Shown: positions 18,562-54,508 of the stretch, piece after piece
Numbering within the stretch: the stretch's first letter is position 1
Layout of the letters: every line of letters begins with the position of its first letter
Assembly (NCBI GenBank): GCA_021776775.1
Contig: JAJFFE010000175.1
Coordinates: 12,562 to 76,561 of the forward strand
From: Planctomycetota bacterium
GTDB lineage: Bacteria; Planctomycetota; UBA8108; UBA1146; JAJFFE01
Direction: 5' to 3'
Length of the DNA stretch: 64,000 nt
Notes under the pieces: generated by a model
Told to the model about the DNA's origin: nothing
The model's database searches: none
What the model saw: only the letters and a program-made list of their open reading frames with translations
Translations under genes and position numbers: made by a program

Positions 18562-21066
18562 TTACGGGCAGCCGGAGACGATACAGTCCAACGCATCCGG
18601 AGTCGGGTCCGTGCCGCAGGCTCCCGTCGGAGCGGGCAGTGACGGTGATCCCGGGATGAAGAGGGCCGCTAGTGAGTAGACCGCGTCCGAGATGTCGACC
18701 ACTCCGTCGTCGTTCGAGTCGGTCGCGTCCGTGCACTCGGGAGCGGGCGAAGCGGGGATGAAGAGCGCGGCCAAGGTGAACACCGCGTCCGAAATGTCGA
18801 AGGTCGTGTCGCCGTTGACATCTCCTCGTCGGAATTGATCGATCGTCGCCACCGGACTATCGAGCAGGAACTCGAGGAGCGCGGCCGCGAGCTCGATCTG
18901 GTCGCCGTCGTAACCCCCGAACTCCGTCGACACCGAGCAGACTCTTCCGCCCGAAGTCGGGTAGTAGGCGATCCCGGTGTTGTACACGATCGTCGAGCCA
19001 CCGCTGCCGTCGTCGGTCAGCAGCACGCGCGAGTCGCTCCCGACGTCATCTTCGCCGCCGTTGGCCGGCGCGATCTGATCGATCCAGTCGAGGGACGTCC
19101 CTTGGTCTTGAGTGTAGGTTGCGTCGAAACCGGTCAGGAAGTCACCGCCGATCATCCCTTCGTGGGTGTCGTCTCCATCGAGTGCGTCGGGGTGGACTCC
19201 GTCGATCGCCGCGAAGGCGGTTTGCGGATCGAACCCGAACGTGTCTCCACCCGACGCGTAGATCGCAGTTCCGGCCGCCTGTAGGGCAACCAGGGTTTCC
19301 CCGTCGAGCGGCGACATCGGATGGTTCGCGGGATACGTTCCCAGGATCACCCACAGCACGGCCGGGGGCACAGTGATCGACGACATGCTCGCGGGTCCGA
19401 CGATCACAGGATCGATGCCATGGGCGTTGAGCGCCGTCTCGAGCGCGGCCACGCTGTCGACGAGACCCGAGATACCTTCGCCGTAGAAGATCATGTGGAG
19501 GCCGGTGGCATCCCCGGGCGTCGTGGCCGTGCAACAGGTTTGCTCGGGAGAGTAGCCTGACAACACCGTTTCGATGCACACGTCGTAGGTGGTGTACTCG
19601 TTCAGGCCGTCGATCAACGCCGAGGTCGCGCTGCCGGGCAACGCCGACACCAAGGAACCATCGACGTAGATCAAGATCTCGTCGAACACTTGCGGGTTGT
19701 TCCAGGTGGCGATGATCTGCCCGAGGGAAGGATCGCAGTCCAGGCTATTGACCGGCGGGGCAGCGGGGAGATCGCATCCGACGTTGAGCACTCCGAGTCC
19801 AGTGGCGATGGAACTTCCGCCGACCTGGATCAGGAACTCATCGCCGATCGAGGCCGACTGGATGACGATCTCGGTCTGCGGGCCGCCCGAGTTGTCGTTG
19901 CAGTAGAGCGGCGAAACGCCGGGCACTGGGCAGCTCGTTCCCACCCAGATCGCGAGCCGCGTGTCGAACGCGCTTCCGAACGTGTCGACCGTCACGTCCC
20001 CGTCGCAGGTCGCGGTGTACGTGTACCAAATGTCGAGCGGCGTCGCGAACCCTCCGCACCCTGGCGCGATGCCGTCCGTGGTCGCGCAGATAGTACTGAA
20101 CGGGGTCGTGCCCGCGAACACCGGGATAGCACTGACGCAGTCGTCGTTGATGGGGGCAGCGGTGCTCGTGACGGTGAGCGTGCCGTCTCCCGTGGCGCCC
20201 GAGAAACCCGCGACTTGCACGTAGAGCGTTTGCCCGGCGACGGCGGGGATCGTCAATTCCGCGTTCAGTCCGCAGCTGTCGTTGAGACAATCAAGCGCGG
20301 CATCGCCAGGAAGCGGGCAGCCACTGGTACCATCCCAGACCGCAAGGGTGGTGTCGAAGCTGCTGCCGCAAGTGGCGAACGTCACGTCGGAATCACAGAC
20401 CACCTCGAACCGATACCAGACATCGACCGGGGATCCGGCGCCAGCGCAGCCGCTCGCGATGCCGGACGCCGTGGCCGACGGTGTGATGAACGGAGTCACC
20501 GACGGTTCCGTCACCACGATGGCATCGGCACAGGTATCGTTCGCGGGTGAGGGCGCGGGAGGCGGGGCATCCGAGAGGAACAAACTCCACTCGTTGAGGG
20601 TGCCGGTGTCGCCGCCGAAGTCGTCGAAGACCTCGAACGTCCACTCCCCCACTGAGTCCTCTCCGTGGAAATCCGACATCGCGCCGGGACCGAGAGCCTG
20701 CATCCAGTAACCCAACCCGGCCGTGAGCTGGAGGGGGTCGAACGCCATGCCGGAAGACGCGAACGTCACCAGAACATCATCGGCCCCCGCGCCGGCGTTC
20801 TGCATCAGTTTGACCGTGGTCCCGGCGGGCGAGGTCACGTCGATGTCGAGGTCGGATTGAAACGTGTGCGCAATGTCCACCCCGACCCGGATGTCCTGGA
20901 TCGTGAGCGCGTCCGCGATCGTCATCGTGTCGGTCACCGTCTGGTAATCGAGGATCGCCGATCCCGGAGCGCTCGATTGCACGATATCGGTGGCCCAGCC
21001 CGGACTCGCCCAGACCACGGCCACCCCGATCACCATCACCCTGGTCACACTGTCGCGGAGTCTCAT
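18562..21066 (-). CDS. Secreted multidomain protein: signal peptide, proprotein-convertase P-domain-like module, two pre-peptidase C-terminal (PPC)-like domains, C-terminal dockerin-like module
   Basis: Signal peptide MRLRDSVTRVMVIGVAVVWASPGWA (ATG 21066; the ORF extends to 21153). IQDIRVGVDIAHTFQSDLDIDVTSPAGTTVKL is P-domain-like. PANDTCADAIVV...VWYRFEV and PINDDCVSAIPV...IWYTYTA are PPC-like. C-terminal RRGDVNGDTTFDISDAVFTLAALF...DSNDDGVVDISDAVYSLAALF...CGTDPTPDALDC. Paralog of 48001-50682. Confidence 0.8.
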   Translation of the reverse strand: MRLRDSVTRVMVIGVAVVWASPGWATDIVQSSAPGSAILDYQTVTDTMTIADALTIQDIRVGVDIAHTFQSDLDIDVTSPAGTTVKLMQNAGAGADDVLVTFASSGMAFDPLQLTAGLGYWMQALGPGAMSDFHGEDSVGEWTFEVFDDFGGDTGTLNEWSLFLSDAPPPAPSPANDTCADAIVVTEPSVTPFITPSATASGIASGCAGAGSPVDVWYRFEVVCDSDVTFATCGSSFDTTLAVWDGTSGCPLPGDAALDCLNDSCGLNAELTIPAVAGQTLYVQVAGFSGATGDGTLTVTSTAAPINDDCVSAIPVFAGTTPFSTICATTDGIAPGCGGFATPLDIWYTYTATCDGDVTVDTFGSAFDTRLAIWVGTSCPVPGVSPLYCNDNSGGPQTEIVIQSASIGDEFLIQVGGSSIATGLGVLNVGCDLPAAPPVNSLDCDPSLGQIIATWNNPQVFDEILIYVDGSLVSALPGSATSALIDGLNEYTTYDVCIETVLSGYSPEQTCCTATTPGDATGLHMIFYGEGISGLVDSVAALETALNAHGIDPVIVGPASMSSITVPPAVLWVILGTYPANHPMSPLDGETLVALQAAGTAIYASGGDTFGFDPQTAFAAIDGVHPDALDGDDTHEGMIGGDFLTGFDATYTQDQGTSLDWIDQIAPANGGEDDVGSDSRVLLTDDGSGGSTIVYNTGIAYYPTSGGRVCSVSTEFGGYDGDQIELAAALLEFLLDSPVATIDQFRRGDVNGDTTFDISDAVFTLAALFIPASPAPECTDATDSNDDGVVDISDAVYSLAALFIPGSPSLPAPTGACGTDPTPDALDCIVSGCP

Positions 21067-21531
21067 CGAGCGCCTCGCCTTCGCACCGTTCGGACCAACG
21101 AGACGGAATGCCGGATCCGCGAGGATAGCCCGCCAAGAGTTCTTCTCGGTCATCTTGTTTCCGGTACGGTCCGAAATGGAATCGTTGGAGGCGTGCTCCT
21201 CGTGGAAGATCGTTCCGCGATCGCCCTCCGGAGCCCCGCTGCGTGTGGCTCTTTGAGTCGAAAAGTCCTATCGGTTCGCGGCGGCGATCGACGGCTTGTG
21301 ATTCTTCTTTGTCTTCATCTTCTTCGCCCCCGACTTCTTTCCTGCGCTCATGAATCAATCCAGTTCTGCAAGTCTGATCGACCGCGTGAAGAGCCCGCGG
21401 GTCCGGCCGGGCCGCATTTGGATGAACACGGCTGTGGCGTCCGCGGCGGAGCGAAACCACATGGCCTGAGTGCGGAGCCGGTTCTATTCTGATATCCTGA
21501 TTCTTGCCCCCAACATACCGATTTTTACGGA

Positions 21532-24424: not shown

Positions 24425-24514
24425 GGCAGGTTCACGAGACTCGCCTTGCGTCGCCGCCAGACGTCGCGCACTCACCCGTGAGCAGGCCATGTCGTTCGGA
24501 CGCTAAATCGGAAA

Positions 24515-26211: not shown

Positions 26212-29200
26212 CTATGGGCAGGGGGCACCGCACTCCAACGTGTCAGGAGTGGGGTCGACACCGCAGTTTTGGTCACCAGGACTTGGGGGAAGGGCGCCAC
26301 TTGAGAACAAGGCGGAGAGGGTAAAAATCGCGTCGCCAATATCGATATTCCCGTCGTCGTTGGCGTCCGCCGAGTCCTCGCACGACGGGTCCGCCCCCCC
26401 GGAAAACAGGTGGCTCAGAGTGAAGATGGCATCTCCGATGTCGAAGAGCGTGTCACTGTTTGCATCGCCGCGCCTGAACGTTGGCGACGTACAAACATCG
26501 AGTACACCGTCACCGTCGCTGTCGAGTGACGGGTTCGACGCAATCTGGATCTCGTCTTCGACGCCGTCACCGTCGCAGTCGTTGAAGTCTAGCTCCTGCG
26601 CGCATTCGGGGAGGTCGCCGACGAACGGAACGGCTCCGAGATCATCAATAGTACTCGACTCACCGCCGAGTTCGATGGCGATAGAGCTAGAGCTCAACCC
26701 GAAGTCGGCCCACGGAGTGTTGCTTTCGCAGCTAGGTGCCACCAGCAACGGATCGATGTATGTGCTCATGGACGGGGCCAAGTTGCTATGGAACGCGGGT
26801 CCCGCAATCGCAGAGCACCAACCCAAGTTGTCGTAGAAAAAGTCTCCCCCCGCCGGAAGCACGGTGCCACTGTACGCTTGCCAGTGCTCGTTCTCTGTGA
26901 ACACATTGTCGTGAATTCGAAGTGGCGTCAGGGCGGCTCCGATGAAATGCAAGCCGCCCCCTTGATTCACAATGGAGCTTCCTGTGTTCGAAAAGATCGT
27001 GTTGTGCCGAATGATCGCTCGGACGCCATCGAGGTAGAGACCCGCCGCGAAGAACGAAGGGGGAGGTGGCGCCATGGGGCCCTTGCCATCTATCTCGCAA
27101 AGCTGCTGGACCTCATTACAGTAGATCAAGTTGTGTTCGACGGTAGCGCGGCACTTGTCGAGCAGCATGATTCCCCCACCGACCTGCGAAACATTGCGTC
27201 GCACGATGTTGCCGCAAAGCGTAAACGGCGTATCGTTCTGACTCTCGACAAATACGCCGCCACCTTTGGAGTCACAGCCAAGGGTTCGATTCGAATCGAT
27301 GTCATTACCGAGCACATCGGGCGCAACGTATCGACCCAAGTAGATCCCTCCACCAAAGTCTTCGGACAGATTGCTACGGATCGTGTTGTTCGCAACGACG
27401 CCAGTAGCAATTGGAGGATCCAGGGGGTCCATCGGGAAATCGGTGATCCAACAGACTCCACCGCCGAACGATACGGACGACCCCGGAGAGCCTGGATCGG
27501 GTTCAGATCCGTGGTTTACAATTTCGTTCCCACGAATCTCGACGTGCCCGACCGTTCGAATGTAGATACCACCTCCCGCCCCGGCAGCTTCGTTTCCCGC
27601 GATCAGGCTGTCGACGATCGTGGCGTCCGCGTCAATGAGACAAATGCCGCCGCCCGATCCGGCCGTGATGTTTCCACTGATTTCGCACGCCCGAATCGTT
27701 GGATTCGAGCCTTCGATAATCGTGATGCCTCCGCCGTGATCCAAGTCAGCTTGTTCGTTCTTGGTGAAGCGACAGTTGTATATCAATGACTCCGACGAAG
27801 ACCCAATTTCCAGCCCTGAGTTGCCGTGGATGAATGTGAGATGGCTCACGCAAACAGTGTCGTCGCAATCGGCGATTCTCAAGGTTGCCTCGGTAGGCGT
27901 CCCAGTGGCTAAGGCTGAAACCGCGACTCCGTCACTCGTGGTGATGGTGACCAGCGACTTGTTGTTCAATTCCAGTGGTCCCGCATGGTCGGGGGCCACG
28001 TCGTCGCCTTCGAATACGATGCAGTCTCCCGGAACAGCATTGTCGAGGCATAGCTGCCGTTCGACTTGCGTCGCATACGGAGAAACCAGGATCGGTGCGA
28101 CCACGTACTCCATGGAAACTGTCGCTACCGCTTGGCCGCAGTCGGTCTCGAAGCTGACTTCGGCCGGGATCGTAGTTCCATCAGAACAATCACAACCCGG
28201 CGCAATCGCCGGCATCGTCACCAAGACTTGATCTCCCGTCGCGTCGACGACTTCCGCCAGTGAAGCTCCGAACGCCGAGATCACGGTTACGGTGAGAGTC
28301 GAGTCGAAACCGACACCGCTAAACGTAACGTCGGTTCCGCCGGTGGTCAGCAGATCCGCCGGGGTACCCAAGATTCCGAACACAGTGGGTAGAGCGACCA
28401 GCTCGATCGGAGCCGTTGTCACCTGCCCGCACGCGTTGGTGGCTTGCACCGTGTAGGCTCCGGCGTCGTCGGATCCAGCGGGATCGATCAAAAGTTGCTC
28501 CGAGGTGGCGCCGGCGATTGCGATCGCGTCTTTGTACCACTGGATCATCGCCGTCCCCTCGACATCGACCGCCAGGTCGATAGCTCCGCAAAATTGAACC
28601 GGGCCCGCCGGCAGCGTCACGGTCGGAGGCTGAAGCACCGTGACGGTCACCGCTTGGCACGGGCCCATGCACCCTGAGGTGTTCTGGACTCGCGCGTAGT
28701 AGATGGTGCTTTCTGACGGCGCGACGAGGTAATGCTCGCCGACGGTCTCGGAGCCGCCGAAGCACGCTTCACTCCAGACGACGATATCGAGCGGGTCCGT
28801 GGGCGCCTCTGCCTCAAGCGTGATCGACTCCCCAGCGCAAATAGTGACGTCGCTGGAAATCAAAGTAGCCGAAGCCACGGCAACGAACGTAACATCGACG
28901 GCGAGGCATTGATCGCTTTCGCAGTCAACGTCCAAGCTCTTCGCGTAATACGTCGTCGCGGGGTACGCCGTGGACGTAACGCCGATTGCGACGCCGCTGC
29001 CTGTCTCACCGACGACGGTTCCGGCGTTTACTCCACAACCCCCCTCGTACCAACGAATCGTATTGGTAGGATCAGCGGCAGTCGCGGTTAGAAACACCTC
29101 GGTGCCGTAACACACGAGCGACTCTGAAACCGAAGCCGAAGTCGGAACCGCGGGCGTCGCCCCGAACACAATAGTAATGCTGGCGCAGTCCGGGCTTGCG

Positions 29201-30756
29201 CAAGGAGCGGGCGCGACTCGCGCAAAGTACTCCGTTGTCGCGGTTGGGGTCACGTCGATGCTGTTCCCGGTCCCGAGCGGAATCCCGCCGCAGCTACCCT
29301 CGAACCACTCCACCGTCGTCCCAGGTAGCGTCGATGCTGTCAACGTGACGGAGCCGCTGCAGATCCCCAAAGCACTCGCCGTAACAGTCGGAGGTAAGAA
29401 ATACTGATCCACGACGATATCGGCTGAATCGCTATCCAGCGACGCCGCGAGCGCGTCGCTGACCTGAACGACGTACGAGCCAGCGTCGCTCAGTACGGCC
29501 GGCCCGATTGCGAGCGAAGCGCTCGTTGCGCCAGCGATTTCGACTCCGTCCTTCATCCACTGGTAGGTCAGCGGTGTCGGTCCGAGTGCGGCGACGGAGA
29601 GAGTGATCGATTCTCCCTCACACAGACTTGAATCGGCGGGATGGGCAACAATGGAGAGTCCCCGATCATAGATGTAGCTCGAACCGAAGCTCTCGTTGCT
29701 GTTGACGAGCATGAACTCGTCGGCCAGGGAGACTTCACGTCCGAACTCGGTCGGGAAGGGAGGCGCAACGGTGAGGGTTCGACTCAGTTGCCACAGCCCT
29801 GAACCGTCGCGTGAGTACACTTTGACGCTTTCACCCCAGTCGCTGACGGCCAACTCCGAGGCGTCGACGTCGAGCGACTTTCCGAAGTTGAGTGATCCCG
29901 AGGTTATCGTTTGCGCTAACACCCAATTCGCGCCGGTGTTTTGGTAATAACGGACCGCTCCTTCCGACTCTGTCCCGACGATCAATCGATCGTCGATCAA
30001 CCTCAGGGAGTATCCAAATCCACTGCTCGGAACGTTACCATCGATGATCTGCGACTCGCTCCAATTGCCACCGCTATCCCGCTCGTAGAGGACCACGCGA
30101 CCGGTGTGCGTCGAGAAGAACCCGGGTTCACCCACCGCGAGCCAATCCCCCGACAACGCCGTCTTGTAGCCGAACTCACCCATGGGTCCCGCGGGCGGGG
30201 TGAGGATTGTCGTTTGATTCCAATCTGATCCCGTTCGGTCGTAGATGAACACTCTGCCATAGCCAGAGAACGGCTGCTCGACACCCACCGCGGCCGTCGA
30301 TTGATCAATGTCGATCGAGCGACCAAACCATCCGGCGTTGCTAGCAGTGTCGGGGGCGAGTTCTTCCGTCAACGTCCAGCTTCCCAAAGTAGAGTCGTAC
30401 TGAAAGACGTCCACCGCCCCATCCTGAAGACCAGGACTGGCGGGAAGTGAGCGAGTAATTGCTCCGACGAATAGCCAATCGCCGTCGACCGCGATCTCGT
30501 GACCAAAGGAGCCGCCGCCCACCCCGGCGATAGTTTGGCTCAACGTCCACGTCGATCCGACTAGCTCGTACACGAAGGCCTGGTCGAAGGTGTAGTCTCC
30601 GAGAATTGCCCAGTTCTGAGACGCCCCGAGGAAACGTCCGACCGTACCTCCGGACGCAGGGGCGGGAGCGATGATGGTGTCCGGGAGTTGCTGAGCCTCG
30701 AGATACGACGTGAGAACGCCGAGAACAATAATCGGAATCAGAGTTGTCGATCGCAT
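26212..30756 (-). CDS. Giant secreted protein (~1514 aa): signal peptide, FG-GAP/integrin-alpha-like propeller repeats, Ig-like domains, right-handed parallel beta-helix, C-terminal dockerin-like module
   Basis: Signal peptide MRSTTLIPIIVLGVLTSYLEAQQ (ATG 30756 with GAAGGTG upstream). FG-GAP-like repeats (GFGHEIAVDGDWLFVGA, GWFGRSIDID, GEFGYKTALSGDWLAVG, SGFGYSLRLIDDRLIVG). I-set-like PLTYQWMKDGVEIAGATSASL...DAGSYVVQV. Beta-helix repeats (GGGITIIEGSNPTIRACEISGN, GGGICLIDADATIVDSLIAGN, GGGIYIRTVGHVEIRGN). C-terminal RRGDANSDTLFDIGDAIFTLSHLF...DANDDGNIDIGDAIFTLSALF...CGVDPTPDTLEC. Confidence 0.85.
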   Translation of the reverse strand: MRSTTLIPIIVLGVLTSYLEAQQLPDTIIAPAPASGGTVGRFLGASQNWAILGDYTFDQAFVYELVGSTWTLSQTIAGVGGGSFGHEIAVDGDWLFVGAITRSLPASPGLQDGAVDVFQYDSTLGSWTLTEELAPDTASNAGWFGRSIDIDQSTAAVGVEQPFSGYGRVFIYDRTGSDWNQTTILTPPAGPMGEFGYKTALSGDWLAVGEPGFFSTHTGRVVLYERDSGGNWSESQIIDGNVPSSGFGYSLRLIDDRLIVGTESEGAVRYYQNTGANWVLAQTITSGSLNFGKSLDVDASELAVSDWGESVKVYSRDGSGLWQLSRTLTVAPPFPTEFGREVSLADEFMLVNSNESFGSSYIYDRGLSIVAHPADSSLCEGESITLSVAALGPTPLTYQWMKDGVEIAGATSASLAIGPAVLSDAGSYVVQVSDALAASLDSDSADIVVDQYFLPPTVTASALGICSGSVTLTASTLPGTTVEWFEGSCGGIPLGTGNSIDVTPTATTEYFARVAPAPCASPDCASITIVFGATPAVPTSASVSESLVCYGTEVFLTATAADPTNTIRWYEGGCGVNAGTVVGETGSGVAIGVTSTAYPATTYYAKSLDVDCESDQCLAVDVTFVAVASATLISSDVTICAGESITLEAEAPTDPLDIVVWSEACFGGSETVGEHYLVAPSESTIYYARVQNTSGCMGPCQAVTVTVLQPPTVTLPAGPVQFCGAIDLAVDVEGTAMIQWYKDAIAIAGATSEQLLIDPAGSDDAGAYTVQATNACGQVTTAPIELVALPTVFGILGTPADLLTTGGTDVTFSGVGFDSTLTVTVISAFGASLAEVVDATGDQVLVTMPAIAPGCDCSDGTTIPAEVSFETDCGQAVATVSMEYVVAPILVSPYATQVERQLCLDNAVPGDCIVFEGDDVAPDHAGPLELNNKSLVTITTSDGVAVSALATGTPTEATLRIADCDDTVCVSHLTFIHGNSGLEIGSSSESLIYNCRFTKNEQADLDHGGGITIIEGSNPTIRACEISGNITAGSGGGICLIDADATIVDSLIAGNEAAGAGGGIYIRTVGHVEIRGNEIVNHGSEPDPGSPGSSVSFGGGVCWITDFPMDPLDPPIATGVVANNTIRSNLSEDFGGGIYLGRYVAPDVLGNDIDSNRTLGCDSKGGGVFVESQNDTPFTLCGNIVRRNVSQVGGGIMLLDKCRATVEHNLIYCNEVQQLCEIDGKGPMAPPPPSFFAAGLYLDGVRAIIRHNTIFSNTGSSIVNQGGGLHFIGAALTPLRIHDNVFTENEHWQAYSGTVLPAGGDFFYDNLGWCSAIAGPAFHSNLAPSMSTYIDPLLVAPSCESNTPWADFGLSSSSIAIELGGESSTIDDLGAVPFVGDLPECAQELDFNDCDGDGVEDEIQIASNPSLDSDGDGVLDVCTSPTFRRGDANSDTLFDIGDAIFTLSHLFSGGADPSCEDSADANDDGNIDIGDAIFTLSALFSSGALPPSPGDQNCGVDPTPDTLECGAPCP

Positions 30757-30976: not shown

Positions 30977-31549
30977 GTGAACGACGTCACGCGGATGATT
31001 GAAGCGGTCGAACGTAGAGAAGGCGGGTCCGAGCAATTGCTGACGACTCACGTCTATCACGAGCTTAGACATATGGCTCGGGACAAGATGCGTCGGGAGC
31101 GGGCCGGCGGCACCCTCAACACCACAGCTCTCGTCCACGAGGCTTACCTTCGTCTCGTCGGCGGCGGTCCGTTAGCATCCGATAGCCGAACCTACTTCTA
31201 TGGCGCAGCGGCCGAAGCAATGCGACGGATCCTTGTCGAGCGGGCCCGCCGACGCGGGCGACTCCGGCACGGCGGAGGACTACGACGGGTATCACTGAAT
31301 TTCGATCACGCCGCCTCGGCACCGACCGCAGACGTCGTCGCACTCTCCGAAGCGCTGGAGGAACTCGAGGCTGTCGACGCGCGCAAAGCTCTGACGGTCA
31401 AGCTCCGCTACTTTGTCGGTCTTTCAACTATAGAATGCGCGGATGCCGTCGGCGTTTCGGAACGAACGTGCAAAGAGGATTGGCGCATCGCACGTATGTG
31501 GCTCAACCAACGCTTGCGTCACGATGACGCCGGCACTGCGCCTGACTAA
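30977..31549 (+). CDS. ECF sigma-70 factor of the subfamily paired with Ser/Thr kinases
   Basis: Region 2 (LLTTHVYHELRHMAR, ALVHEAYLRL) and region 4 (LTVKLRYFVGLSTIECADAVGVSERTCKEDWRIARMWL). Immediately upstream of a Ser/Thr kinase gene. Confidence 0.8.
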   Translation: MNDVTRMIEAVERREGGSEQLLTTHVYHELRHMARDKMRRERAGGTLNTTALVHEAYLRLVGGGPLASDSRTYFYGAAAEAMRRILVERARRRGRLRHGGGLRRVSLNFDHAASAPTADVVALSEALEELEAVDARKALTVKLRYFVGLSTIECADAVGVSERTCKEDWRIARMWLNQRLRHDDAGTAPD

Positions 31550-31591
31550 CACGTCTAGGTACACGGCTGGCAACTCGGTTGGAGCTACATC

Positions 31592-37968: not shown

Positions 37969-38067
37969 TCTTTCGGTGACCGTTCGTTCGTCAGTTCGCC
38001 AGGCCATTCGAATTCAATACGGTTTTCTTCAGCGCCAAGAGAGTAACGTCCCTCAGAGAGCAGAGTC

Positions 38068-39795: not shown

Positions 39796-39797
39796 TC

Positions 39798-41455: not shown

Positions 41456-41463
41456 TCGAGCCT

Positions 41464-42366
41464 ATGGCGAAAACGAGACGCGGTGGCGCAGGAGTTTGGG
41501 AGTATCTAAAGGGGGCGTTCCTTTTTCGTTGGAACCTGCTCTTCGGGGCCGGTGCAGTGATCCTGGCCGCCCTGAGCCCGGCCCCGGAAGTCCTGTTGCC
41601 GCTGGTCGCGGCCGCCGAAGCGACTTATCTCATGGGGATGGTCGCGTCGCCTCGATTCCGCACCGCGATCGACGCACGTGAACACGCATCGCGTCGCAAG
41701 ACCCCCGAGGCCGGGCCTAGTTCGACCGCAACGCCGTCGCTCGACACTCTGGTGGCGGGGATGTCGCCATCGGGTCGTCGCCGCTTCGAAGAGCTGCGAG
41801 CGCGTTGCCTCGAGATGCGATCGATCGCCGCGGGCGTCGGAGGCCGGACCGGCTCCGGGCGGCGCTCCGCGAGCGAGGTCTCGAGCCCCGGTCTCGACAA
41901 GCTTCTCTGGATGTTCCTCCGCCTCATGATTTCGCAGTCGTCGCTCGAGAACTTCCTCGCGTCCACCGATGAGTCGCAGATCCGGAAGCAGCTCGGTCAG
42001 ACGAAAGAGAAACTCGCCAAGGCCGAAGAGGACAGCGACGAGCGGCTGATCCGATCGCTTCGCGACAGTCTCGCCACCGGCGAGCTACGCCTCGACAACT
42101 ACGCGAAAGCGGAAGCCAACGCGGAGTTCGTGGCGGTCGAACTCGATAGACTCGAGGGCAAGATTCAAACGTTGAGCGAAATGGCGATCAATCGTCAAGA
42201 TCCGGACTTTCTCAGCCGCGAGGTCGACTCGGTGGCGGCCAGCATGCAAGCAACCGAAGTAGCGATGGAAGAGTTGGCCCTCGTCGACGGACTGATCGAT
42301 GGGCTCACCGATCAACCGTCCATCTTGGAGGCGGACCTGAGAGGAGTGTTGGGCAATGAAGCCTGA
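41464..42366 (+). CDS. Membrane protein with two N-terminal TM helices and a ~170-aa C-terminal coiled-coil domain
   Basis: TMs LLFGAGAVILAALSPAPEVLLPLVAAAEATYLMGMV. Long heptad-repeat C-terminus (QLGQTKEKLAKAEEDSDERLIRSLRDSL...). Its stop overlaps the downstream AAA+ ATPase start by 11 nt. Confidence 0.6.
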   Translation: MAKTRRGGAGVWEYLKGAFLFRWNLLFGAGAVILAALSPAPEVLLPLVAAAEATYLMGMVASPRFRTAIDAREHASRRKTPEAGPSSTATPSLDTLVAGMSPSGRRRFEELRARCLEMRSIAAGVGGRTGSGRRSASEVSSPGLDKLLWMFLRLMISQSSLENFLASTDESQIRKQLGQTKEKLAKAEEDSDERLIRSLRDSLATGELRLDNYAKAEANAEFVAVELDRLEGKIQTLSEMAINRQDPDFLSREVDSVAASMQATEVAMEELALVDGLIDGLTDQPSILEADLRGVLGNEA

Positions 42367-44173
42367 ACGCGATGACGAGGCCGATCTGTCAGCTGCCCCA
42401 CGTCCCGGATTGCAGGGTCTCGGATTACAGGATCTCGGACTGCCCGAGGGTTATCCCGAGTGGGCCGCGCGATTGGCCGAGCTCTACTTCTCGGGAACCA
42501 CCTCGACGTTCGTGCTGCATGGCAACGTCTTCGATCACATTCCGATGGGATCCGGGAAGAAGTCGCGGTTCACCCACTTGTCCGGCGTCTTGGCCGACGA
42601 TCTCTTCGGCAGCTGGGATCTCGTGTTTAGCTACGACCTAGCGACCGGGCTACGCGCCCTCGCCGGCCGCGGCAAGGATCGGCTGCGCGAAATGGTCGCA
42701 CTGGCCAATCGGAAGTTCGGAGACTTCCAGGAGATCCCTCGCGACCCGACTCACACCCTCGCCTACCTCGACCGAGTCGTGCGTCGCAACCTGCTAGCCG
42801 ACGAGGAAGACCGCCTCAGCATCGCCATCGTGATCGATCACGCCTCGTACGTGGTTCCGCGAGGCCAGCCCGGGCAGCTCAACCTTTCCGCGTCGACCAA
42901 CCTCGTCACGATCCTCAACTGGGCGACCAGCCCGTACCTCAAGCGACTCAATATGGCGGTGATGTTGGTCGATCCGAGACTCGCCACGCTGAGCGAACGA
43001 CTCACCGGAAACTCGCACGTGGCGACCCTCGAGGTCAAGCTCCCGACCGAGTCGGAGCGGCGCCGGTTCATCGAGTTCACGGCCGAGAGCGTCGAGTTCG
43101 AGAAGTTCTCGGACTTCTCCGTCGAAGAGCTCGCCAATCTGACGGCGGGGATTTCACTCTCGGACCTCGACACCATGGTGCGATCCGCGCAGAAAGCAGG
43201 ACGACGACTCGACTCGGGTCTGTTTCGCCGCCTCAAGAAGCGCCTCCTCGAACGGCAGTGCGAAGGCCTCCTCGAGTTCATCGAACCGAAGTGGAGCCTC
43301 GACATGGTGGTCGGGCACAAAGCGGCGAAGGCGAGACTCACCGGCGACGCGGAACTCCTCAAGCGTGGCCGACTGGGGAGCGTCCCGATGGGCTACCTCC
43401 TGTGTGGTCCCGTCGGAACCGGCAAGAGCTTCCTCGCCCAATGCGCGTCGGGTTCGCTGGGAGTGCCGTGTGTCATGCTCAAGAACTTCCGCTCGAAGTA
43501 CGTCGGCGAGACCGAAGGTAACCTCGAGAAGGTCCTCTCGGTGTTGCGTGCGATGGGGCCGGTGGTGGTGATCATCGATGAGGCCGACGCGATGCTCGGC
43601 AACCGAGGTTCGGACGGCGACTCCGGGACCTCGAGTCGCGTCTTCGCCATGATCGCGGCGCAAATGGGCAACACGCAGTACCGCGGAAAGATCCTCTGGA
43701 TGCTGCTGACGTGTCGCCCAGATCTCCTGCCCATCGACCTCAAGCGTCAGGGGCGCGCCGAAATCCACATCCCCATGTTCTACCCTTCCGAACAAGAGGA
43801 ACTCCGCGAGCTGTTCGAGGTGCTCGCCCGCAAACTCGGCGCAGACCTCGACCCCCAAGACATCCCACCCATCCCCCATCTCGGCGATCTTTCGGGGGCA
43901 GACATCGAGGGAATCGTCGGCCGCGCCCAGCGCGCGGCGCTCCTGGCGGGAGCGGAGAAAATCACGCGCGAGATCCTGGAGCAGGCGGTCGGCCAGTTCA
44001 TGCCGTCGACCCGCAGTCTCGAGCGCAAGCTGCAAGAAATCGCCGCGATCATCGAGTGCACCGATCGCGAGTTTCTCCCGTCGCACATCGCAAAAGATCT
44101 CGAGGCGTCCGGCGGTCGCGAAAAGCTGCAAGAAGAACTGACAACACTCAAGAGACTCGTCGAGAGTCTCTAA
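42356..44173 (+). CDS. AAA+ ATPase, classic-AAA clade, with a degenerate P-loop-like N-terminal domain and a canonical C-terminal AAA domain
   Basis: C-terminal domain has Walker A GPVGTGKSF, Walker B VVVIIDEADA and a second region of homology LTCRPDLLPIDLKRQGRAE. N-terminal half (FVLHGNVFD..IVIDHASYV) looks like an inactivated nucleotide-binding domain. Confidence 0.8.
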   Translation: MKPERDDEADLSAAPRPGLQGLGLQDLGLPEGYPEWAARLAELYFSGTTSTFVLHGNVFDHIPMGSGKKSRFTHLSGVLADDLFGSWDLVFSYDLATGLRALAGRGKDRLREMVALANRKFGDFQEIPRDPTHTLAYLDRVVRRNLLADEEDRLSIAIVIDHASYVVPRGQPGQLNLSASTNLVTILNWATSPYLKRLNMAVMLVDPRLATLSERLTGNSHVATLEVKLPTESERRRFIEFTAESVEFEKFSDFSVEELANLTAGISLSDLDTMVRSAQKAGRRLDSGLFRRLKKRLLERQCEGLLEFIEPKWSLDMVVGHKAAKARLTGDAELLKRGRLGSVPMGYLLCGPVGTGKSFLAQCASGSLGVPCVMLKNFRSKYVGETEGNLEKVLSVLRAMGPVVVIIDEADAMLGNRGSDGDSGTSSRVFAMIAAQMGNTQYRGKILWMLLTCRPDLLPIDLKRQGRAEIHIPMFYPSEQEELRELFEVLARKLGADLDPQDIPPIPHLGDLSGADIEGIVGRAQRAALLAGAEKITREILEQAVGQFMPSTRSLERKLQEIAAIIECTDREFLPSHIAKDLEASGGREKLQEELTTLKRLVESL

Positions 44174-44495: not shown

Positions 44496-44559
44496 CGCTC
44501 CGAATAATCCGGCGAGTAGCTTTGCGCTCTGGTTCGATCCACGCCGTGAACGGCCCGAC

Positions 44560-46911: not shown

Positions 46912-46953
46912 CTGGGAGTCCGTTCGAAGGCGGTATCCCAGTCTTGGCTCTCG

Positions 46954-47172: not shown

Positions 47173-47238
47173 CCTGGACGAACCTGAGTTGGCCAAACCC
47201 GAAGTCCACGCCGCGCGACCTTCCCTTGGGATACGCGC

Positions 47239-48000: not shown

Positions 48001-50682
48001 ATGAGAATACGTCGACTGAGAATAGAGTTCTGCGTCCTCCTCATCGTCATTGCCGCCGGGACCCTGCAGGCCCAGAGCATCCTCGTCCTAGACTATGGCA
48101 GTGAGGACAATGTTGCCCAGGACGCCCTGAACAATTTGGCGCTTCCGTTCACGCTTACGTCTGACCCGCCGTCGTTCGATACCGAGTTGACCGGCGGCAC
48201 TGAGTGGGATCTCGTGATCGTCGACAACCCGTCGAACTCGCTCACGGCAGGGGTAGAAACGAACCTGACAGACTACATCAACAACGGCGGGAAGCTCCTC
48301 TTCTCGTACTGGGATCTCGACGTGGCCGATCCCCTCTTGCAAGCGGCACTCGGAGTCGCGGCGACCACCAGCCTCACCACGCCGACCGAGATTCACGACT
48401 GGGGCACCGGCTCATCTCTATGGGCGCGCCCGAACGGTATCGGCAGCCCCATCACCGTCGAGGCGGACTCCTGGCTCAACAACGGGGACGCGATGACGGC
48501 AGCCCCCGGAGCGGTCGCAATCGGTGGCTTCACGCCGGGAGTAACGGCCGGCGAGGCGGCGATCATCGTCGGAAACGGCGGACGTACGATCACCTTCGGG
48601 CACGAGTTCGACAGTCTCGACGAGCCGGCCATCACCGGCATGATCGAAAACGCGGTTCAGCTCTGCCTCCAGAACAAGCACGTGCTACTCGTCGAGGACA
48701 CTTCGGTGGGATTCAGCACAACCGCGCACGACGCGCTCGACGCCGAAGGACTGATCTTCGACCAGGTCTCCCTTGCTGGCTTCAATCCCGCGCTCACGAG
48801 CGGCATCGCTTGGGATCTGGTAGTGGCCGAGATCGCGAACTTTCCGTTCGTGACCGACGACCTCGAGGCGTACATCGCCAGCGATGGAAAAGTGTTCATC
48901 TCGTATTGGGATTTGAACAACGCGGTTTCGCTCCAGGCGTCCCTCGGAGTGAGCGTCGCGTCGAGCTTCCTCGCTCCCATGGAAATCTTCGACTGGGGGG
49001 CCGGCGGATCGGCCGGTCAGATCTGGACGACGCCCAACGCGATCGGTGCGAGTATTCCCATGACTGCAGACGCCTTCGCAAACAACGGAGATCGCCTCGT
49101 CGGAGTCGACGGAGTCGAGGCCGGCGGTTTCACACTGACCCCGACACCCAACGAGGCAGCTGTCGTCATCAAGAACGATGGGAACTGCATCACGGTGGGG
49201 CACGATTTCATCAGTCTGCAACAGCCCGAAGCGACGAACTTTGTCCAGAACTGCATTCATAGACTCTGCAATCCGCCTCCCGCAAACGATGATTGCGCGA
49301 ACGCGCTCGCCGTAATCGAAGGCGACCATGCCTACTCGAACACTCTCGCCACGACCGATGGCCCGAGCCCGTGCGGAGCGATCGGGAGCGACATTTGGTA
49401 TAGCTACACGGCGCCCGAGGCGGGCACCGTAACACTCTCCACATGCCTTCAAGCGACCTACGACACCGCGCTCGCGATCTATCCTGGCGATCCGTGTCCG
49501 GCCGACGCCGTCGACGCGCTGGCTTGCAACGATGATTTCCCAGGATGCGGGTTAACCTCCACAACGACCTACACTATGGCTTCCGGCGAGACGATCCTGA
49601 TCCAAGTCGGAGGCTTTGCCGGCGGCATGGGCGATGGAACGCTCACCATCTCGTTTGCGCCCGCGCCGCTCCCGACCGACGTTTCGGGGTTCGATGTGGT
49701 GTTGGTCAACGGTGAGGGAGACGTCGACGGTGGTCTAGTAGTGAGCCAGCTCGCCTACACGGCTGCGTTGACCACCGCCGGACTCAGCTTCATCGAAATT
49801 GAACCCAACGTGCTCGGCCAAACACTGGTTGGTTGCCCGGCCGTCGCTTGGATCTACAACAATGGCACGTTCCCGGATGACGCGCCAGTCGACGCGGCGA
49901 TCATGGAACACCTCCGCGATTGCGTGCTCGCCGGTAACGCCGCGATGGCCAACGGCGGTGACATGTGGGGCTTTCTTCCGCCGACCGCGTACGATGACAT
50001 CGACGGGATCGACACCGACGCAGCTTCCGACGGTGGCGACACCGTCACGGATCTGGAAGGCGTCGCTGGCTCCTCGCTCGATGGTTTCGTGAGCGCCTAC
50101 GTTCAGGATCAACTCGGCAACGACTGGACCGACGTCTTGGCGCTCGCCGCCATCGGCGCCGGCACCGAGATCATGGGCGAGAACCAGGAGCTCGCCCTTT
50201 TCTCACCGGCTGCCGCCGCCGCAGCCGGTGCCGACTACAACGTCGGCGTCTACTACCCGCACGACGAAACCGTCGCCCCTGGCGCCGGTGACACGTTCTC
50301 GATGTCGATCGAACCCGCTGGCGTGGACGACCCGGCCACCTTCCTCGCCGATTGTTTCGCGCTCGTGTTCTTCCCGGCGCCGGACGGTGAAGTGTTCTCA
50401 CGCGGAGATTGCAACAACGACGGGTTATTCGACATCGGCGATGCGATCGCGGAACTCGACATCTTGTTCGGAGGAACCGGTCCGGCGGCGTGCGATGACG
50501 CGTGCGATGCGAACGACGACGGCTTGTTCGACATCGGAGACCCGATCTCCGTGCTGAGCACACTATTCGCCATGGGTGACTCCCCACCGGCTCCGTCATT
50601 CCCGGAGTGTGGCCTGGATCCGACGGACGACTTGCTCGGTTGTGACACTCAACCGGTCGAGGCGTGCGCCGATCTGAAGTAG
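48001..50682 (+). CDS. Secreted multidomain protein: signal peptide, two tandem ~250-aa domains of unknown function, PPC-like domain, C-terminal dockerin-like module. Paralog of 18562-21066.
   Basis: Signal peptide MRIRRLRIEFCVLLIVIAAGTLQAQS (ATG 48001). Two repeated WDLVIVD...LLFSYWDL / WDLVVAE...VFISYWDL units. PPANDDCANALAVIEGD...IWYSYTAPEAGTVTL is PPC-like. C-terminal SRGDCNNDGLFDIGDAIAELDILFGG...DANDDGLFDIGDPISVLSTLF...CGLDPTDDLLGC. Confidence 0.85.
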   Translation: MRIRRLRIEFCVLLIVIAAGTLQAQSILVLDYGSEDNVAQDALNNLALPFTLTSDPPSFDTELTGGTEWDLVIVDNPSNSLTAGVETNLTDYINNGGKLLFSYWDLDVADPLLQAALGVAATTSLTTPTEIHDWGTGSSLWARPNGIGSPITVEADSWLNNGDAMTAAPGAVAIGGFTPGVTAGEAAIIVGNGGRTITFGHEFDSLDEPAITGMIENAVQLCLQNKHVLLVEDTSVGFSTTAHDALDAEGLIFDQVSLAGFNPALTSGIAWDLVVAEIANFPFVTDDLEAYIASDGKVFISYWDLNNAVSLQASLGVSVASSFLAPMEIFDWGAGGSAGQIWTTPNAIGASIPMTADAFANNGDRLVGVDGVEAGGFTLTPTPNEAAVVIKNDGNCITVGHDFISLQQPEATNFVQNCIHRLCNPPPANDDCANALAVIEGDHAYSNTLATTDGPSPCGAIGSDIWYSYTAPEAGTVTLSTCLQATYDTALAIYPGDPCPADAVDALACNDDFPGCGLTSTTTYTMASGETILIQVGGFAGGMGDGTLTISFAPAPLPTDVSGFDVVLVNGEGDVDGGLVVSQLAYTAALTTAGLSFIEIEPNVLGQTLVGCPAVAWIYNNGTFPDDAPVDAAIMEHLRDCVLAGNAAMANGGDMWGFLPPTAYDDIDGIDTDAASDGGDTVTDLEGVAGSSLDGFVSAYVQDQLGNDWTDVLALAAIGAGTEIMGENQELALFSPAAAAAAGADYNVGVYYPHDETVAPGAGDTFSMSIEPAGVDDPATFLADCFALVFFPAPDGEVFSRGDCNNDGLFDIGDAIAELDILFGGTGPAACDDACDANDDGLFDIGDPISVLSTLFAMGDSPPAPSFPECGLDPTDDLLGCDTQPVEACADLK

Positions 50683-51432
50683 TGATCGACGCTCGAGAGA
50701 ACTGAGATAGCAAGCTTGGCGGAGTAGCTTTCGAAGGAAGCTACTCCGCATTTTCGTAACCTGCCCGCTGGGCGCCGACGAAAGCCGTCGGAGATTGCGG
50801 TGCCTCGAGGCACCGCAACCTGCTTCAAGCCGCTCGGCTTCGGTTGAGACGAACGCGGGCGAATCGCCGATGAGTTCGGCGACCCATGTGTCGGCGCGGA
50901 CAGTGGATGTCTCGTCACTGTCACCGTCACTCGTCACTAGCGCTGTCACCGTCACTAGCGGCGGTTGCTGCGTTGCTTGCCGTGCGACCATCCCAGTGGC
51001 TCGCTCTGGTTGCTGAACTCCCAGCCTCGCCCGATGAGTTCGATCGGAGTGTGATCACTGCCGACCGTCGGGCCGTAGTCGTCGAACAGTTCGTCGTAGA
51101 AGACTTGAGCGGAGCACATGCCAACCGGAAAGAGGAACGAGCGGAAGATCACGAAGAGAGGAATCGAACGGACATCGTGGCTCCTTGCGTACCTCGACCG
51201 GTCGGGAGGTCGTCGGGCGTGCAAAAGAGGGTTCGTTCCGAGGATGCCGAGGTCGCGGGACGGGACCGCCAAGATTGGATCTGCGCTTCGGAGTCGGGTT
51301 CTCGGGGGCCCGAGACGCTCGACCTTCGTTGGCGGGAATCTTCGATGGAAACGGCATCTACGGGAGTAGCCCTGGCTCGAGTACGCCAGGCAGTTCGCTC
51401 AAAAGCCCGAATCGGCTCGAACAGGATTTCCC

Positions 51433-53103
51433 ATGCCAAGACGACTCGCCGCGCTTCTCTTCTGCTTAGGGATGTCAGCACCGGTGCTGGCCCAAGCCCC
51501 GCAGATTTCGTCGTTGAGCGAGGCCACGCTTACCCGAAGTGGCCGGCTCGAAGTTTACGGGAGCGGATTCGGAACGCTGCAGGGAACGAGCCAGCTGTTC
51601 GTCGATGACTTGGAAGCCATCGTCACCTCGTGGGCGAACGACGAAATCCACGGCTATATCCCGGAAAGTGCGGCGGTCGGGTCGGTTCCCGTTCAAGTCG
51701 TCGCATCCGCGGGATCGAGCAACGTTCTCCCGCTCGACGTGACTCTTCGATCGGCGGTGGGTCACACGCGTTGGCGATTCGAGATGGACTCGCCAATCTC
51801 GGGCGCCTACACCGCGGTGGGTCCCAACGGCGTGGTCTACGCCACCGACATCGAGCGGATGTACGCGCTGTCGGCCACTGGCGCGCTGCTTTGGGTTCTT
51901 CCCGGGGCCGGCGGCGGGCGACCGATCGTCTTCGGAAACGACGGCACGCTCTACACAGGGTCGGACAGTGGCTTGGTCTCCGTCGACCCGGCCGGCGCGT
52001 TGAACTGGGAGTACTCTTCTGCCCCCCTCGCGATCTATGTCGCGGGTCCCGGTGTCGGGCCCGATGGAAACATCTACGGCGCTCAGGACGCCGTCCTCGG
52101 CGGAGCGTTGTACTCGCTCGATCCGAGCGGCGCTTTGATCTGGGATCTCCCGGGTGTGCTGGGATTGACGCTGGGTGGCAACGCCAACTGGAAGATCTCC
52201 TTCGCGGCCGATCGCTTCTACACCGGGGTCACTTGGGACGTGCATTGTTTCAGTCTCGACGGCGATCAACTCTGGAGCGCCGGCGACTTGGGTATTGCAA
52301 CTTCGTCTCTGGCAGAGCTGGATCCGCAAGGACGAGTCATCACGAGGTGGGCGCAGACCGGATTGAGGGCGTTGACCGAGGACGGAGATACCGACTGGCT
52401 CATCACGCCACCCGGAACCTTGAGCACGACGACGCAGCCGGTAGTCGGTCCCAACGGCGACATCTACATGGGCAATTTTTTCGGTTCCAACGTCTGGGCG
52501 TTCTATCCTGACGGCAGCCTCAAGTGGTTCCGCGATGACGCACCGGGAATCATGCAAAAGCTCGGAGTGAGTCCCAACGGCGCGGTGCTCGTCGACGGGG
52601 GCGGTCCCGGTTTCGGCTCCCCCGGCTTCTTCCGCGGATTCGATACCGACAACGGCGACCTCTTGTGGCAAGTCAACCTCTCCACGGTCGCGGGTTGGGA
52701 TGAACTCGCGTGGACGAACCAGCCAGCGTTCACGACCAACAGTGCGACAGCGTTCGTCACCTCCCGATTCGCCGGCAACGAGAACCACGGTTACTTGTAC
52801 GCGCTGCAAGTGGGAGACGACCAAGACCCGCTCTTCGTCCGCGGAGATGTCAACGCGGATGGATCGCTCGACATCTCGGATGCGGTCGCGTTGCTCGCAG
52901 CCCTCTTCGGCGGAAGCGTCATCGTCTGCGACGACGCGGCGGATTCCAACGACGACGACCTTCTCGATATCTCCGATCCTATCTCCGTCCTCGCCGCCCT
53001 GTTCGGATCGCCCTCGGTCCCGCCCGCGAGTCCCTTCCCGCTCTGCGGCAGCGACCCGACCCCCGGTCTTCTGGACTGTGTCGAGTTTCCTGCCTGCCCG
53101 TGA
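51433..53103 (+). CDS. Secreted protein: signal peptide, IPT/TIG-like domain, PQQ-like beta-propeller repeats, C-terminal dockerin-like module
   Basis: Signal peptide MPRRLAALLFCLGMSAPVLAQA. PQISSLSEATLTRSGRLEVYGSGFG is IPT-like. Repeated LW/PDG/NIY propeller blades. C-terminal VRGDVNADGSLDISDAVALLAALFGG...DSNDDDLLDISDPISVLAALF...CGSDPTPGLLDC. Confidence 0.8.
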   Translation: MPRRLAALLFCLGMSAPVLAQAPQISSLSEATLTRSGRLEVYGSGFGTLQGTSQLFVDDLEAIVTSWANDEIHGYIPESAAVGSVPVQVVASAGSSNVLPLDVTLRSAVGHTRWRFEMDSPISGAYTAVGPNGVVYATDIERMYALSATGALLWVLPGAGGGRPIVFGNDGTLYTGSDSGLVSVDPAGALNWEYSSAPLAIYVAGPGVGPDGNIYGAQDAVLGGALYSLDPSGALIWDLPGVLGLTLGGNANWKISFAADRFYTGVTWDVHCFSLDGDQLWSAGDLGIATSSLAELDPQGRVITRWAQTGLRALTEDGDTDWLITPPGTLSTTTQPVVGPNGDIYMGNFFGSNVWAFYPDGSLKWFRDDAPGIMQKLGVSPNGAVLVDGGGPGFGSPGFFRGFDTDNGDLLWQVNLSTVAGWDELAWTNQPAFTTNSATAFVTSRFAGNENHGYLYALQVGDDQDPLFVRGDVNADGSLDISDAVALLAALFGGSVIVCDDAADSNDDDLLDISDPISVLAALFGSPSVPPASPFPLCGSDPTPGLLDCVEFPACP

Positions 53104-53164
53104 TCTCCAAGAGCCCCTCAACCGTCATCCCTCCGACCGGAGTGGTTTGCGAAACGGAAAACCC

Positions 53165-54508
53165 ATGCGCATCACACTCATTGCGTCCCTCTTGCTCCTC
53201 TTCTTTTCGTCCACCGCTCGCAGCCAGGTCGAGTACATACTTCACATCATCACCCCGTTTCCCGGCGGAAGCTCCGGCGAAGCGTACGCGTGGGACGTCA
53301 ACGACGACGGAACCGCCGTCGGCTTGGCGACGGCAAGTACCTATCACGGTTTCTACTGGACGGTCGACGACGGCAAGATCGATCTCGGCGAAGGCGACGT
53401 GCGCGGCATCAACAATCTCGGCGTCGGAGTGGGCAACTCGCTCCAATGGTCGGACCCGACCAGCTTCTCGGTGATCCCAGCTCCTAGCACCTACTACTGG
53501 GCGGTGCACGCGCTCGACGTCAGTGATACGGGCATCGTCGTGGGAGAAGCGGTGCATCAGTACTCGGGTTCGACGTCGATTCAAACCGCGTTCGTGTGGG
53601 ACGAGGTCAACGGGACTCGCGACCTCAGCGCGCTCGGCGTACCGTCGGCGTTCATCGCGCACGCCGTCAACGACGCCGGCCAAATCGTCGGCGACACGAG
53701 TTCTTTCGGCAGCACGAGCACGGCGTCGGCTTTCTTGTTCGACCTGGCGACCAGCAACTACGTTGAACTCGGAAGTCTGCAGCCCGGTGGCGTCGGCAAT
53801 GCGTCCGCGCGCGACATCAACTCGAGCGGGACCGTGACCGGATACTCCTCGACGCCCGAGCTGTTCGTCGGCGACCACGCGTTCATCTGGACTGAAGCCG
53901 GCGGCATGCAGGACATCGGCGTCCTCGGCGTCTACTCGGACTTTCTGACCCTCGAAGACTCTCACGCCTACGGGATCAACGACGACGGAACCGTCGTCGG
54001 GAACAGCACCTCACCGAATGCAGCCACCAGCTGGGACGCGCGTCACGCATTCGTCTGGGACGCAACCCAGGGGATGCGGGATCTCAACGATCTCTGCGCT
54101 CGCCCGAGCGGGTACTACCTGATCAACGCCACCGCGATCAGCAACACGGGTTGGATCTGCGGAACGGGCTTCGGGAGCGCCGGCGGTGGGTTGGCCTCCG
54201 GGTTCGTCCTCGAGCCGATCGTCACGACCGCAGCCACGTTCGTGCGCGGCGACTGCAACAGCGACGGTCTCGTCGACATCGGTGACCCGGTGTTCCTCCT
54301 CTCGGCACTGTTCACCGTCGACGCGGCGCCGACGTGTGACGACGCGTGCGATACCAACGACGACGGAGGACTCGACATCGGCGACGCGATCCACGGCCTG
54401 AGCGCCCTCTTCGGCGGCGGCCCCACTCCGACGAGTCCCTACCCCAACTGCGGGACCGATCCGTCCACCGACACCCTGGAGTGCGCGGCGTTCGAAGCGT
54501 GTCCGTAG
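53165..54508 (+). CDS. Secreted HAF-family extracellular-repeat protein with C-terminal dockerin-like module
   Basis: Signal peptide MRITLIASLLLLFFSSTARSQ (ATG 53165). HAF-type repeats (AYAWDVNDDGTAVG, HAYGINDDGTVVG, AHAVNDAGQIVG). C-terminal VRGDCNSDGLVDIGDPVFLLSALF...DTNDDGGLDIGDAIHGLSALFGG...CGTDPSTDTLEC. Confidence 0.8.
   Translation: MRITLIASLLLLFFSSTARSQVEYILHIITPFPGGSSGEAYAWDVNDDGTAVGLATASTYHGFYWTVDDGKIDLGEGDVRGINNLGVGVGNSLQWSDPTSFSVIPAPSTYYWAVHALDVSDTGIVVGEAVHQYSGSTSIQTAFVWDEVNGTRDLSALGVPSAFIAHAVNDAGQIVGDTSSFGSTSTASAFLFDLATSNYVELGSLQPGGVGNASARDINSSGTVTGYSSTPELFVGDHAFIWTEAGGMQDIGVLGVYSDFLTLEDSHAYGINDDGTVVGNSTSPNAATSWDARHAFVWDATQGMRDLNDLCARPSGYYLINATAISNTGWICGTGFGSAGGGLASGFVLEPIVTTAATFVRGDCNSDGLVDIGDPVFLLSALFTVDAAPTCDDACDTNDDGGLDIGDAIHGLSALFGGGPTPTSPYPNCGTDPSTDTLECAAFEACP

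Follow-up and report, generated by a model that had tools for sequence, protein, structure and literature searches.

The window analyzed here is a 64,000-nucleotide stretch of a Planctomycetota bacterium genome (assembly GCA_021776775.1, contig JAJFFE010000175.1, positions 12,562 to 76,561 of the forward strand); all coordinates below are counted from its first nucleotide. Seven of its proteins share a module of about 90 amino acids, in which two predicted calcium-binding repeats are followed by a cysteine-bearing tail. The module is described below as a putative divergent dockerin and a domain of one of the carriers as a predicted cohesin, and the joint occurrence of both in related genomes points to a probable cohesin-dockerin display or assembly system of a non-cellulosomal kind.

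Module-bearing genes

The carriers are an Rhs protein (1070-8095, minus strand), with its start codon at nucleotide 8095, and the proteins A (18562-21066, minus), B (26212-30756, minus), C (34561-35376, minus), D (48001-50682, plus), E (51433-53103, plus) and F (53165-54508, plus). A first-pass annotation of the sequence had assigned one shared module to these seven proteins, and a hidden Markov model (HMM) of the seven copies, run against the six-frame translation of the window, recovered exactly those seven open reading frames (ORFs) with E-values from 4.8e-42 to 4.1e-37. The next best match stood at 0.74, and because of this gap the set lies far beyond chance. The annotated gene starts were confirmed by a start check, and all seven proteins carry Sec-type signal peptides.

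In the Rhs protein the module is N-terminal, directly behind the signal peptide (copy 1, 7739-8008, minus strand, E 2.5e-37), and the passenger consists of RHS repeats and core. In the other six proteins the module occupies the extreme C-terminus. On the minus strand it closes protein A, a P-domain and galactose-binding-like protein (Pfam P_proprotein, 53 bits; GBD_T9SS_assoc, 33 bits; copy 2, 18565-18837, E 4.1e-37), protein B, with FG-GAP, Ig and beta-helix passengers according to Pfam (copy 3, 26215-26481, E 2.9e-38), and the small protein C (copy 4, 34564-34830, E 6.1e-40). On the plus strand it closes the 893-amino-acid protein D (copy 5, 50392-50679, E 2.8e-38), protein E, with a TIG domain and a PQQ propeller (Pfam TIG and PQQ_2; copy 6, 52831-53100, E 3.5e-38), and the HAF-repeat protein F (HAF_rpt, 73.6 bits; copy 7, 54236-54505, E 4.8e-42). 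Copies 1, 5 and 7 have six cysteines. That the passengers differ was noted in the first-pass annotation, and the Pfam and NCBIfam domains found in the carriers are indeed unrelated.

The alignment of the seven window copies contains 24 invariant columns. The module opens with a first calcium loop and helix (F-x-R-G-D-x-N-x-D...D-I-x-D...L-F), continues through a linker bearing C35 into a second loop and helix (D-x-N-x-D...D-I-x-D...L..L-F), and ends with a proline-rich linker followed by C73-G...C84...C90. All seven copies agree in the calcium-loop signatures D7, N9, D11 and D18, and D40, N42, D44, D48 and D51, and six of them also have D15; the helix ends L26-F27 and L59-F60 and the four cysteines C35, C73, C84 and C90 are likewise invariant. 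Five of the six C-terminal copies terminate in C-P-stop, and protein D ends in CADLK. The cysteine motif had been placed near the end of the proteins, which is correct, at a distance of 5-10 residues, which is not: one residue lies beyond the last cysteine. The RGD tripeptide was considered as an integrin-type motif and rejected, its D being position 1 of the first calcium loop.

Relationship to dockerins

To judge by its sequence, the module is a divergent type-I-like dockerin with two intact calcium-loop/helix repeats in its first 60 or so residues. Both loops follow the ligand pattern D-x-N-x-D-G-x-x-D-x-x-D, and the repeats are near-symmetric, 13 of 22 positions being identical in protein F. 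The closest solved relative of the protein F module found with phmmer is the dockerin 2y3n_B, at a weak but significant E-value of 5.7e-4, with more dockerins at E 0.15-1. In a template-free AlphaFold2 (AF2) model of protein C, helices stand behind each loop (mature residues 176-187, 196-199 and 209-220) at predicted local distance difference test (pLDDT) values of 91-97. The two dockerin-type loops of the first-pass annotation, each with an LF helix, are thus upheld, the loop and helix-end residues being invariant in all seven copies. No NCBIfam model for the module was found, and no sorting-domain model was among the NCBIfam matches of the proteins.

The module resembles type I dockerins (PF00404; e.g. 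PDB entries 2y3n_B and 1ohz) in its tandem segments of about 22 residues, each a 12-residue calcium loop plus helix in near two-fold symmetry. It also resembles them in its mostly C-terminal position on secreted proteins with varied passengers and in its occurrence in genomes that also encode cohesins. Unlike type I dockerins, the window modules carry a proline-rich extension of about 30 residues with three cysteines and another cysteine in the inter-repeat linker, a conserved R-G-D at the start of loop 1, and a sub-threshold Pfam score. Classical clostridial dockerins have no disulfides, whereas one to three are predicted for the module. In contrast to cellulosomal dockerins, the host is a planctomycete of the Gram-negative type and the passengers (Rhs toxin, adhesin-like repeats, propellers) are not cellulases.

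The cysteine tail

The motif [C/G]G.DP[T/S].D.L.C was counted 83 times in the 1.26 Mb of related loci, on every occasion inside a module. As the motif is never met with outside the module, the tail is best counted as an integral part of the domain and not as a separate tag. The Cys-rich extension described in the first-pass annotation is real, and its terminal cysteine motif is conserved in homologues.

Among 598 aligned copies the cysteine classes are nested and even totals dominate: C35 with one tail cysteine in 164 copies, C35 with three tail cysteines in 120, and the same with C8 and C39 added in 33. C8 and C39 co-vary, with both present in 46 copies, one in 16 and neither in 525 (Fisher p 6e-52); in the window the pair is found in the Rhs protein, D and F, and both residues are missing from A, B, C and E. 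Given the even totals and the co-variation, the simplest reading is one to three predicted disulfides, namely a core bond C35-C84 joining the tail to the inter-repeat linker, a second bond C73-C90 and an optional bond C8-C39.

A cohesin-like domain in protein C

The part of protein C in front of its own module (34831-35313, minus strand) has, on the evidence of family HMM, AF2 and Foldseek, a predicted cohesin fold. A homologue search with this domain alone returned only itself. Many multi-module proteins are periodic (module, about 160-190 amino acids, module), and the domain is homologous to these inter-module spacers (2e-10 with phmmer); an iterative search joins it to 141 of 218 of them. 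The spacers match Pfam Cohesin, P0128 at 46 bits exceeding the cut-off, and a cohesin-like family was assembled from them. PF00963 is matched by 14 of 24 aligned members of this family, and the family profile matches about 35 solved cohesins, the best at 3.5e-8, and almost nothing else. When the window sequence was left out of the profile, the protein C domain was still matched at E 4.2e-12, and nothing else in the window was.

The AF2 model of the domain is all-beta (pLDDT 87; predicted template modelling score, pTM, 0.83). In a Foldseek comparison with the PDB its best 50 matches were all cohesins (E 1.4e-8 to 1e-4, TM-score 0.55-0.73), and a second AF2 model of protein C gave the same cohesin result. 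The first-pass annotation had stated that no cohesin-like partner is encoded in the window, which is incorrect: protein C contains such a domain, and its type is the candidate receptor of the modules. Of the five cysteines of mature protein C, four belong to the module and one, within GFAMGCAHD, to the cohesin. The nearest cohesin subfamily usually has two (GWSFGVCHDP ... FCD.LG.PP), and the odd cysteine of protein C might be free or engaged in an intermolecular bond.

Distribution in related genomes

A word-indexed homologue search retrieved 997 proteins at E<=1e-5. Coverage of the query is 90-100% for most of the best 120 of the 997 and 69-80% for three, and the named ones among these 120 are mostly metagenome-assembled genomes (MAGs) called 'Planctomycetota bacterium'. 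When cluster representatives were searched exhaustively, 598 reached E<=1e-30. The 23,430 representatives that reach E<=1e-10 were not taken to indicate how large the Cys-tail family is, as ordinary or multi-copy dockerins can score that well too. Related loci were obtained by scanning GTDB species representatives with a three-sequence alignment; 182 sites were confirmed and 80 loci from 33 MAGs were kept, a sample centred on modules. Nearly all of the 33 MAGs are labelled Planctomycetota, often with many loci per genome. The full-length module including its tail is widespread in uncultured Planctomycetota genomes. Two labels depart from this: L048 (QNYK01000107.1), a contig rich in modules and cohesins, is labelled 'Bacillota bacterium', and the module protein P0075 'Candidatus Poseidoniia archaeon'. 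Because the distribution is otherwise planctomycetal, the two labels seem to reflect faulty binning or labelling, or else gene transfer.

The placement of the module varies. Among the cluster representatives it is also found directly behind signal peptides, internally and in tandem, with two to seven full copies per protein. The N-terminal placement in the Rhs protein, called atypical in the first-pass annotation, is therefore common in the family. When further Rhs proteins with the module at the N-terminus were looked for, one truncated Rhs ORF (L059) was returned, which was uninformative.

In the 80 loci, 188 ORFs hold 193 modules and 64 ORFs hold 95 cohesin-like domains. The cohesin family is fused near-obligately to the module, 63 of the 64 cohesin-bearing ORFs also carrying one, and the two types of match never overlap. 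Written as C (cohesin) and M (module), the arrangements found are CM (33), CCM (20), CCCM (5), MCM (3) and MCMCM (1). A cohesin is present in the sampled neighbourhoods of 24 of the 33 MAGs. A conserved cluster of four genes, CCCM-CCM-CCM-CM, recurs in six MAGs (L048, L053, L054, L063, L075 and L078; e.g. L053, 6929-12812).

The four-gene cluster sits among housekeeping genes (an AsnRS/AspRS-type synthetase, peroxiredoxin and SecA). The cysteine pattern is not the same in its four modules, a hint that their specificities may differ. Among the related loci, conservation is highest for a cohesin-module protein of about 450 amino acids (L013, 8924-10273), composed of a cohesin, an unassigned domain of about 180 amino acids and a module, and encoded between alcohol dehydrogenase and pyruvate kinase; it is syntenic in about ten MAGs (L018, L024, L025, L027, L033, L035, L039, L041, L055 and L061).

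Other genes of the window

The Rhs protein contains a DUF6531 domain, and part of the roughly 500 residues beyond its RHS core is Stv-like. Genes for PAAR, VgrG or a type VI secretion system (T6SS) were not found near the Rhs gene, and this, together with the Sec signal peptide, suggests a delivery or display of the Rhs protein that is independent of a T6SS. The genes of D, E and F (48001-54508, plus strand) lie head to tail with short gaps, E ending at 53103 and F starting at 53165, and may form an operon. Divergent from the gene of protein B are genes for an extracytoplasmic function (ECF) sigma factor (PF07638, 166 bits), a Ser/Thr protein kinase and a TPR protein (30977-33735, plus strand); they may be a regulatory pairing with the adhesin-like protein B. 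The sigma factor beside the kinase, and a TyrRS whose relatives include one at 80% and one at 75% from a 'Planctomycetes bacterium', agree with the planctomycetal origin of the window.

A set of genes unrelated to the module (37228-44173, plus strand) encodes PspA/IM30, an OmpA-domain substrate-binding protein, an ABC permease and ATPase, an unassigned 300-amino-acid protein and an AAA+ ATPase. Two ORFs on the plus strand have partial Pfam matches, 8638-9132 to positions 152-313 of the 333 in the MMPL profile and 55069-55986 to positions 1-100 of the 326 in the RNB profile. These may be truncated or frameshifted genes, or ORFs whose boundaries were wrongly chosen.

Proposed assembly system and alternatives

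The module and the cohesin family are probably the parts of a non-cellulosomal, 'planctosome'-like cohesin-dockerin display or assembly system. A common attachment or assembly role, close to the one put forward in the first-pass annotation, is counted the best reading. The seven proteins would be exported by Sec, in line with their signal peptides, and would fold outside the cytoplasm with calcium and disulfides. The C-terminal extension would fold back on the dockerin and be stapled to it by disulfides, which may stabilize so small a module outside the cell. The co-occurrence of the two domains suggests that modules dock onto cohesins non-covalently and in a calcium-dependent manner. Because the cohesin proteins themselves end in the same module (CM, CCM, CCCM), the parts could chain into an extracellular or surface scaffold, with protein C, a cohesin plus a module, as adaptor or chain-forming unit. 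Such a scaffold would display the Rhs toxin, the adhesin-like proteins, the propellers, the P-domain protein and putative enzymes. The module of the Rhs protein is plausibly N-terminal because the C-terminus of an Rhs protein is its toxin end.

Several observations weigh against this proposal. All window copies fall under the gathering threshold of Pfam Dockerin_1 (PF00404), which is 22.9 bits: the copy in A scores 17.5 bits, that in C 21.0 bits, and the other five were unreported at E 0.01. Homologous modules elsewhere exceed the threshold (P0124, 96.6 bits; P0133, 47.9 bits), and many matches carry a precomputed PF00404 assignment. The sequence of the protein C domain alone has no direct Pfam match, so that its membership in the cohesins is transitive as far as sequence goes; the evidence of the fold is direct but comes from a predicted model. 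The window contains one cohesin for seven modules. Neither a cell anchor nor a cohesin-only anchoring scaffoldin was seen in the related loci, a module-centred sample that would miss such genes. Finally, 142 of the 170 C-terminal modules in the related loci (84%) stop no more than one residue past the last cysteine and 102 (60%) end in 'CP', and a plain dockerin role leaves this fixed Cys-Pro terminus unexplained.

An unlikely alternative is that the module is a calcium-binding domain that works independently of cohesins, stabilizing its carriers or binding a surface glycan or mineral, and that its fusion to cohesins is incidental. Many non-cellulosomal dockerin-like modules have no demonstrated cohesin partner, as is generally known and as a survey of non-cellulosomal modules cited in PMC6461901 also indicates. 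The single cohesin among seven modules in the window and the nine of 33 MAGs without a cohesin in the sampled loci fit such a domain as well. The fusion of 63 of the 64 cohesin ORFs to a module, the M-C-M-C-M proteins and the conserved four-gene clusters, however, are hard to explain without a functional link between cohesin and module, and the near-symmetric repeats, like those of protein F, resemble cohesin-binding dockerins.

It is rather improbable that the module serves as a C-terminal tag for sorting or secretion, to be recognized, and possibly cleaved, by an export or attachment machinery dedicated to it in the manner of the C-terminal domain (CTD) of the type IX secretion system (T9SS), PEP-CTERM with exosortase or LPXTG with sortase. 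Its one good argument is the fixed terminus just described, to which may be added that six of the seven window copies stand at the extreme C-terminus and that every carrier is secreted, with unrelated passengers. A C-terminal placement is, however, also usual for cellulosomal dockerins. The T9SS-CTD or PEP-CTERM logic invoked in the first-pass annotation is disfavoured because the module is N-terminal in the Rhs protein and N-terminal, internal or present in up to seven tandem copies in relatives, because it is predicted to be a helical calcium-binding domain and no beta-sandwich CTD, and because it has no transmembrane helix, hydrophobic stretch or basic tail, the proteins ending in C-x(3-5)-C-P-stop. 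The sortase-like processing enzyme that the annotation suggested looking for was found neither in the window nor beside the conserved relatives, nor were exosortase or secretion genes; when the neighbours of module or cohesin genes were clustered all against all to look for a conserved processing enzyme or anchor, syntenic housekeeping genes were all that emerged.

That cohesin and module bind each other only within one polypeptide, as a self-capped or autoinhibited didomain of which the six other window proteins would not be clients, is very doubtful: the cohesin does immediately precede the module in CM, CCM and X-C-M proteins, and the AF2 didomain model has a pTM of 0.75, fairly high for two domains, but modules outnumber cohesins (193 vs 95 in the loci, 7 vs 1 in the window), most module proteins lack a cohesin, and CCM and CCCM hold more cohesins than modules.

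Comparison with known systems

The proposed cohesin-dockerin system is homologous to that of cellulosomes and would work like it. Like cellulosomal scaffoldins and adaptors (CipA, ScaA/ScaB), relatives have one to three cohesins and one C-terminal module, and protein C would be the minimal CM form. Unlike scaffoldins, they show no CBM, X-module, SLH or sortase anchor, and cellulases are absent from their arrangements; the planctomycete cohesins often escape Pfam because of their divergence, M-C-M-C-M proteins alternate both domains, and the genes for cohesins and modules lie dispersed between housekeeping genes. With T9SS CTD, PEP-CTERM and LPXTG the module has in common one conserved element at the extreme C-terminus of unrelated secreted proteins. 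It differs from the beta-sandwich of the former and the transmembrane helix of the latter two in being a predicted helical EF-hand pair that also stands elsewhere than at the C-terminus, with no cognate machinery found nearby.

Among published proposals, the nearest is the 'planctosome' that Andrei et al. (2019, ISME J, PMC6461901) hypothesized for freshwater Planctomycetes of the Nemodlikiaceae. Its hypothetical model consists of an LTD-anchored one-cohesin protein, an adaptor and dockerin-bearing M12B/M14 peptidases. In both cases, secreted planctomycete proteins that are not cellulolytic bear cohesin and dockerin modules, a protein with a proprotein-convertase P-domain (A in the window) is involved, and a multiprotein complex at the surface is proposed. 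Among the window proteins there is no LTD-anchored cohesin protein and no dockerin-bearing M12B/M14 peptidase. Conversely, the passages of the paper considered here name neither a Cys-stapled tail nor Rhs toxins nor operons with cohesin-dockerin fusions. Literature searches of incomplete coverage found no account of a Cys-stapled tail, CM/CCM/CCCM operons or a dockerin-bearing Rhs toxin, which is absence of evidence only.

Implications

With their high affinity, cohesin-dockerin pairs are best known as the units from which cellulosomes are built, and they are widely used in synthetic biology. To our knowledge, their role beyond cellulose degradation is essentially uncharted. The data presented here point to a large uncharacterized branch of cohesin-dockerin proteins in abundant uncultured Planctomycetota, distinguished by a putatively disulfide-reinforced dockerin, by scaffold proteins that contain both receptor and ligand, and by an Rhs toxin among the likely clients. 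A dockerin subfamily stapled by disulfides and accompanied by fused cohesins would be a new version of a known cohesin-dockerin kind and is not surprising in principle. A bolder and quite tentative extension is a self-assembling extracellular lattice of CM, CCM, CCCM and M-C-M-C-M proteins in uncultured marine Planctomycetota, which would display Sec-exported Rhs toxins, adhesins and enzymes independently of a T6SS, and in which the Cys-Pro-COOH end would act as a second determinant, for example in export recognition or in locking the complex.

If modules and cohesins do not bind each other, the module stays a common, ordinary calcium-binding domain. If they do, their binding would explain the organization of part of the planctomycete surface proteome, would represent a new mode of presentation for polymorphic toxins, and would provide oxidation-stable, orthogonal cohesin-dockerin pairs for protein engineering.

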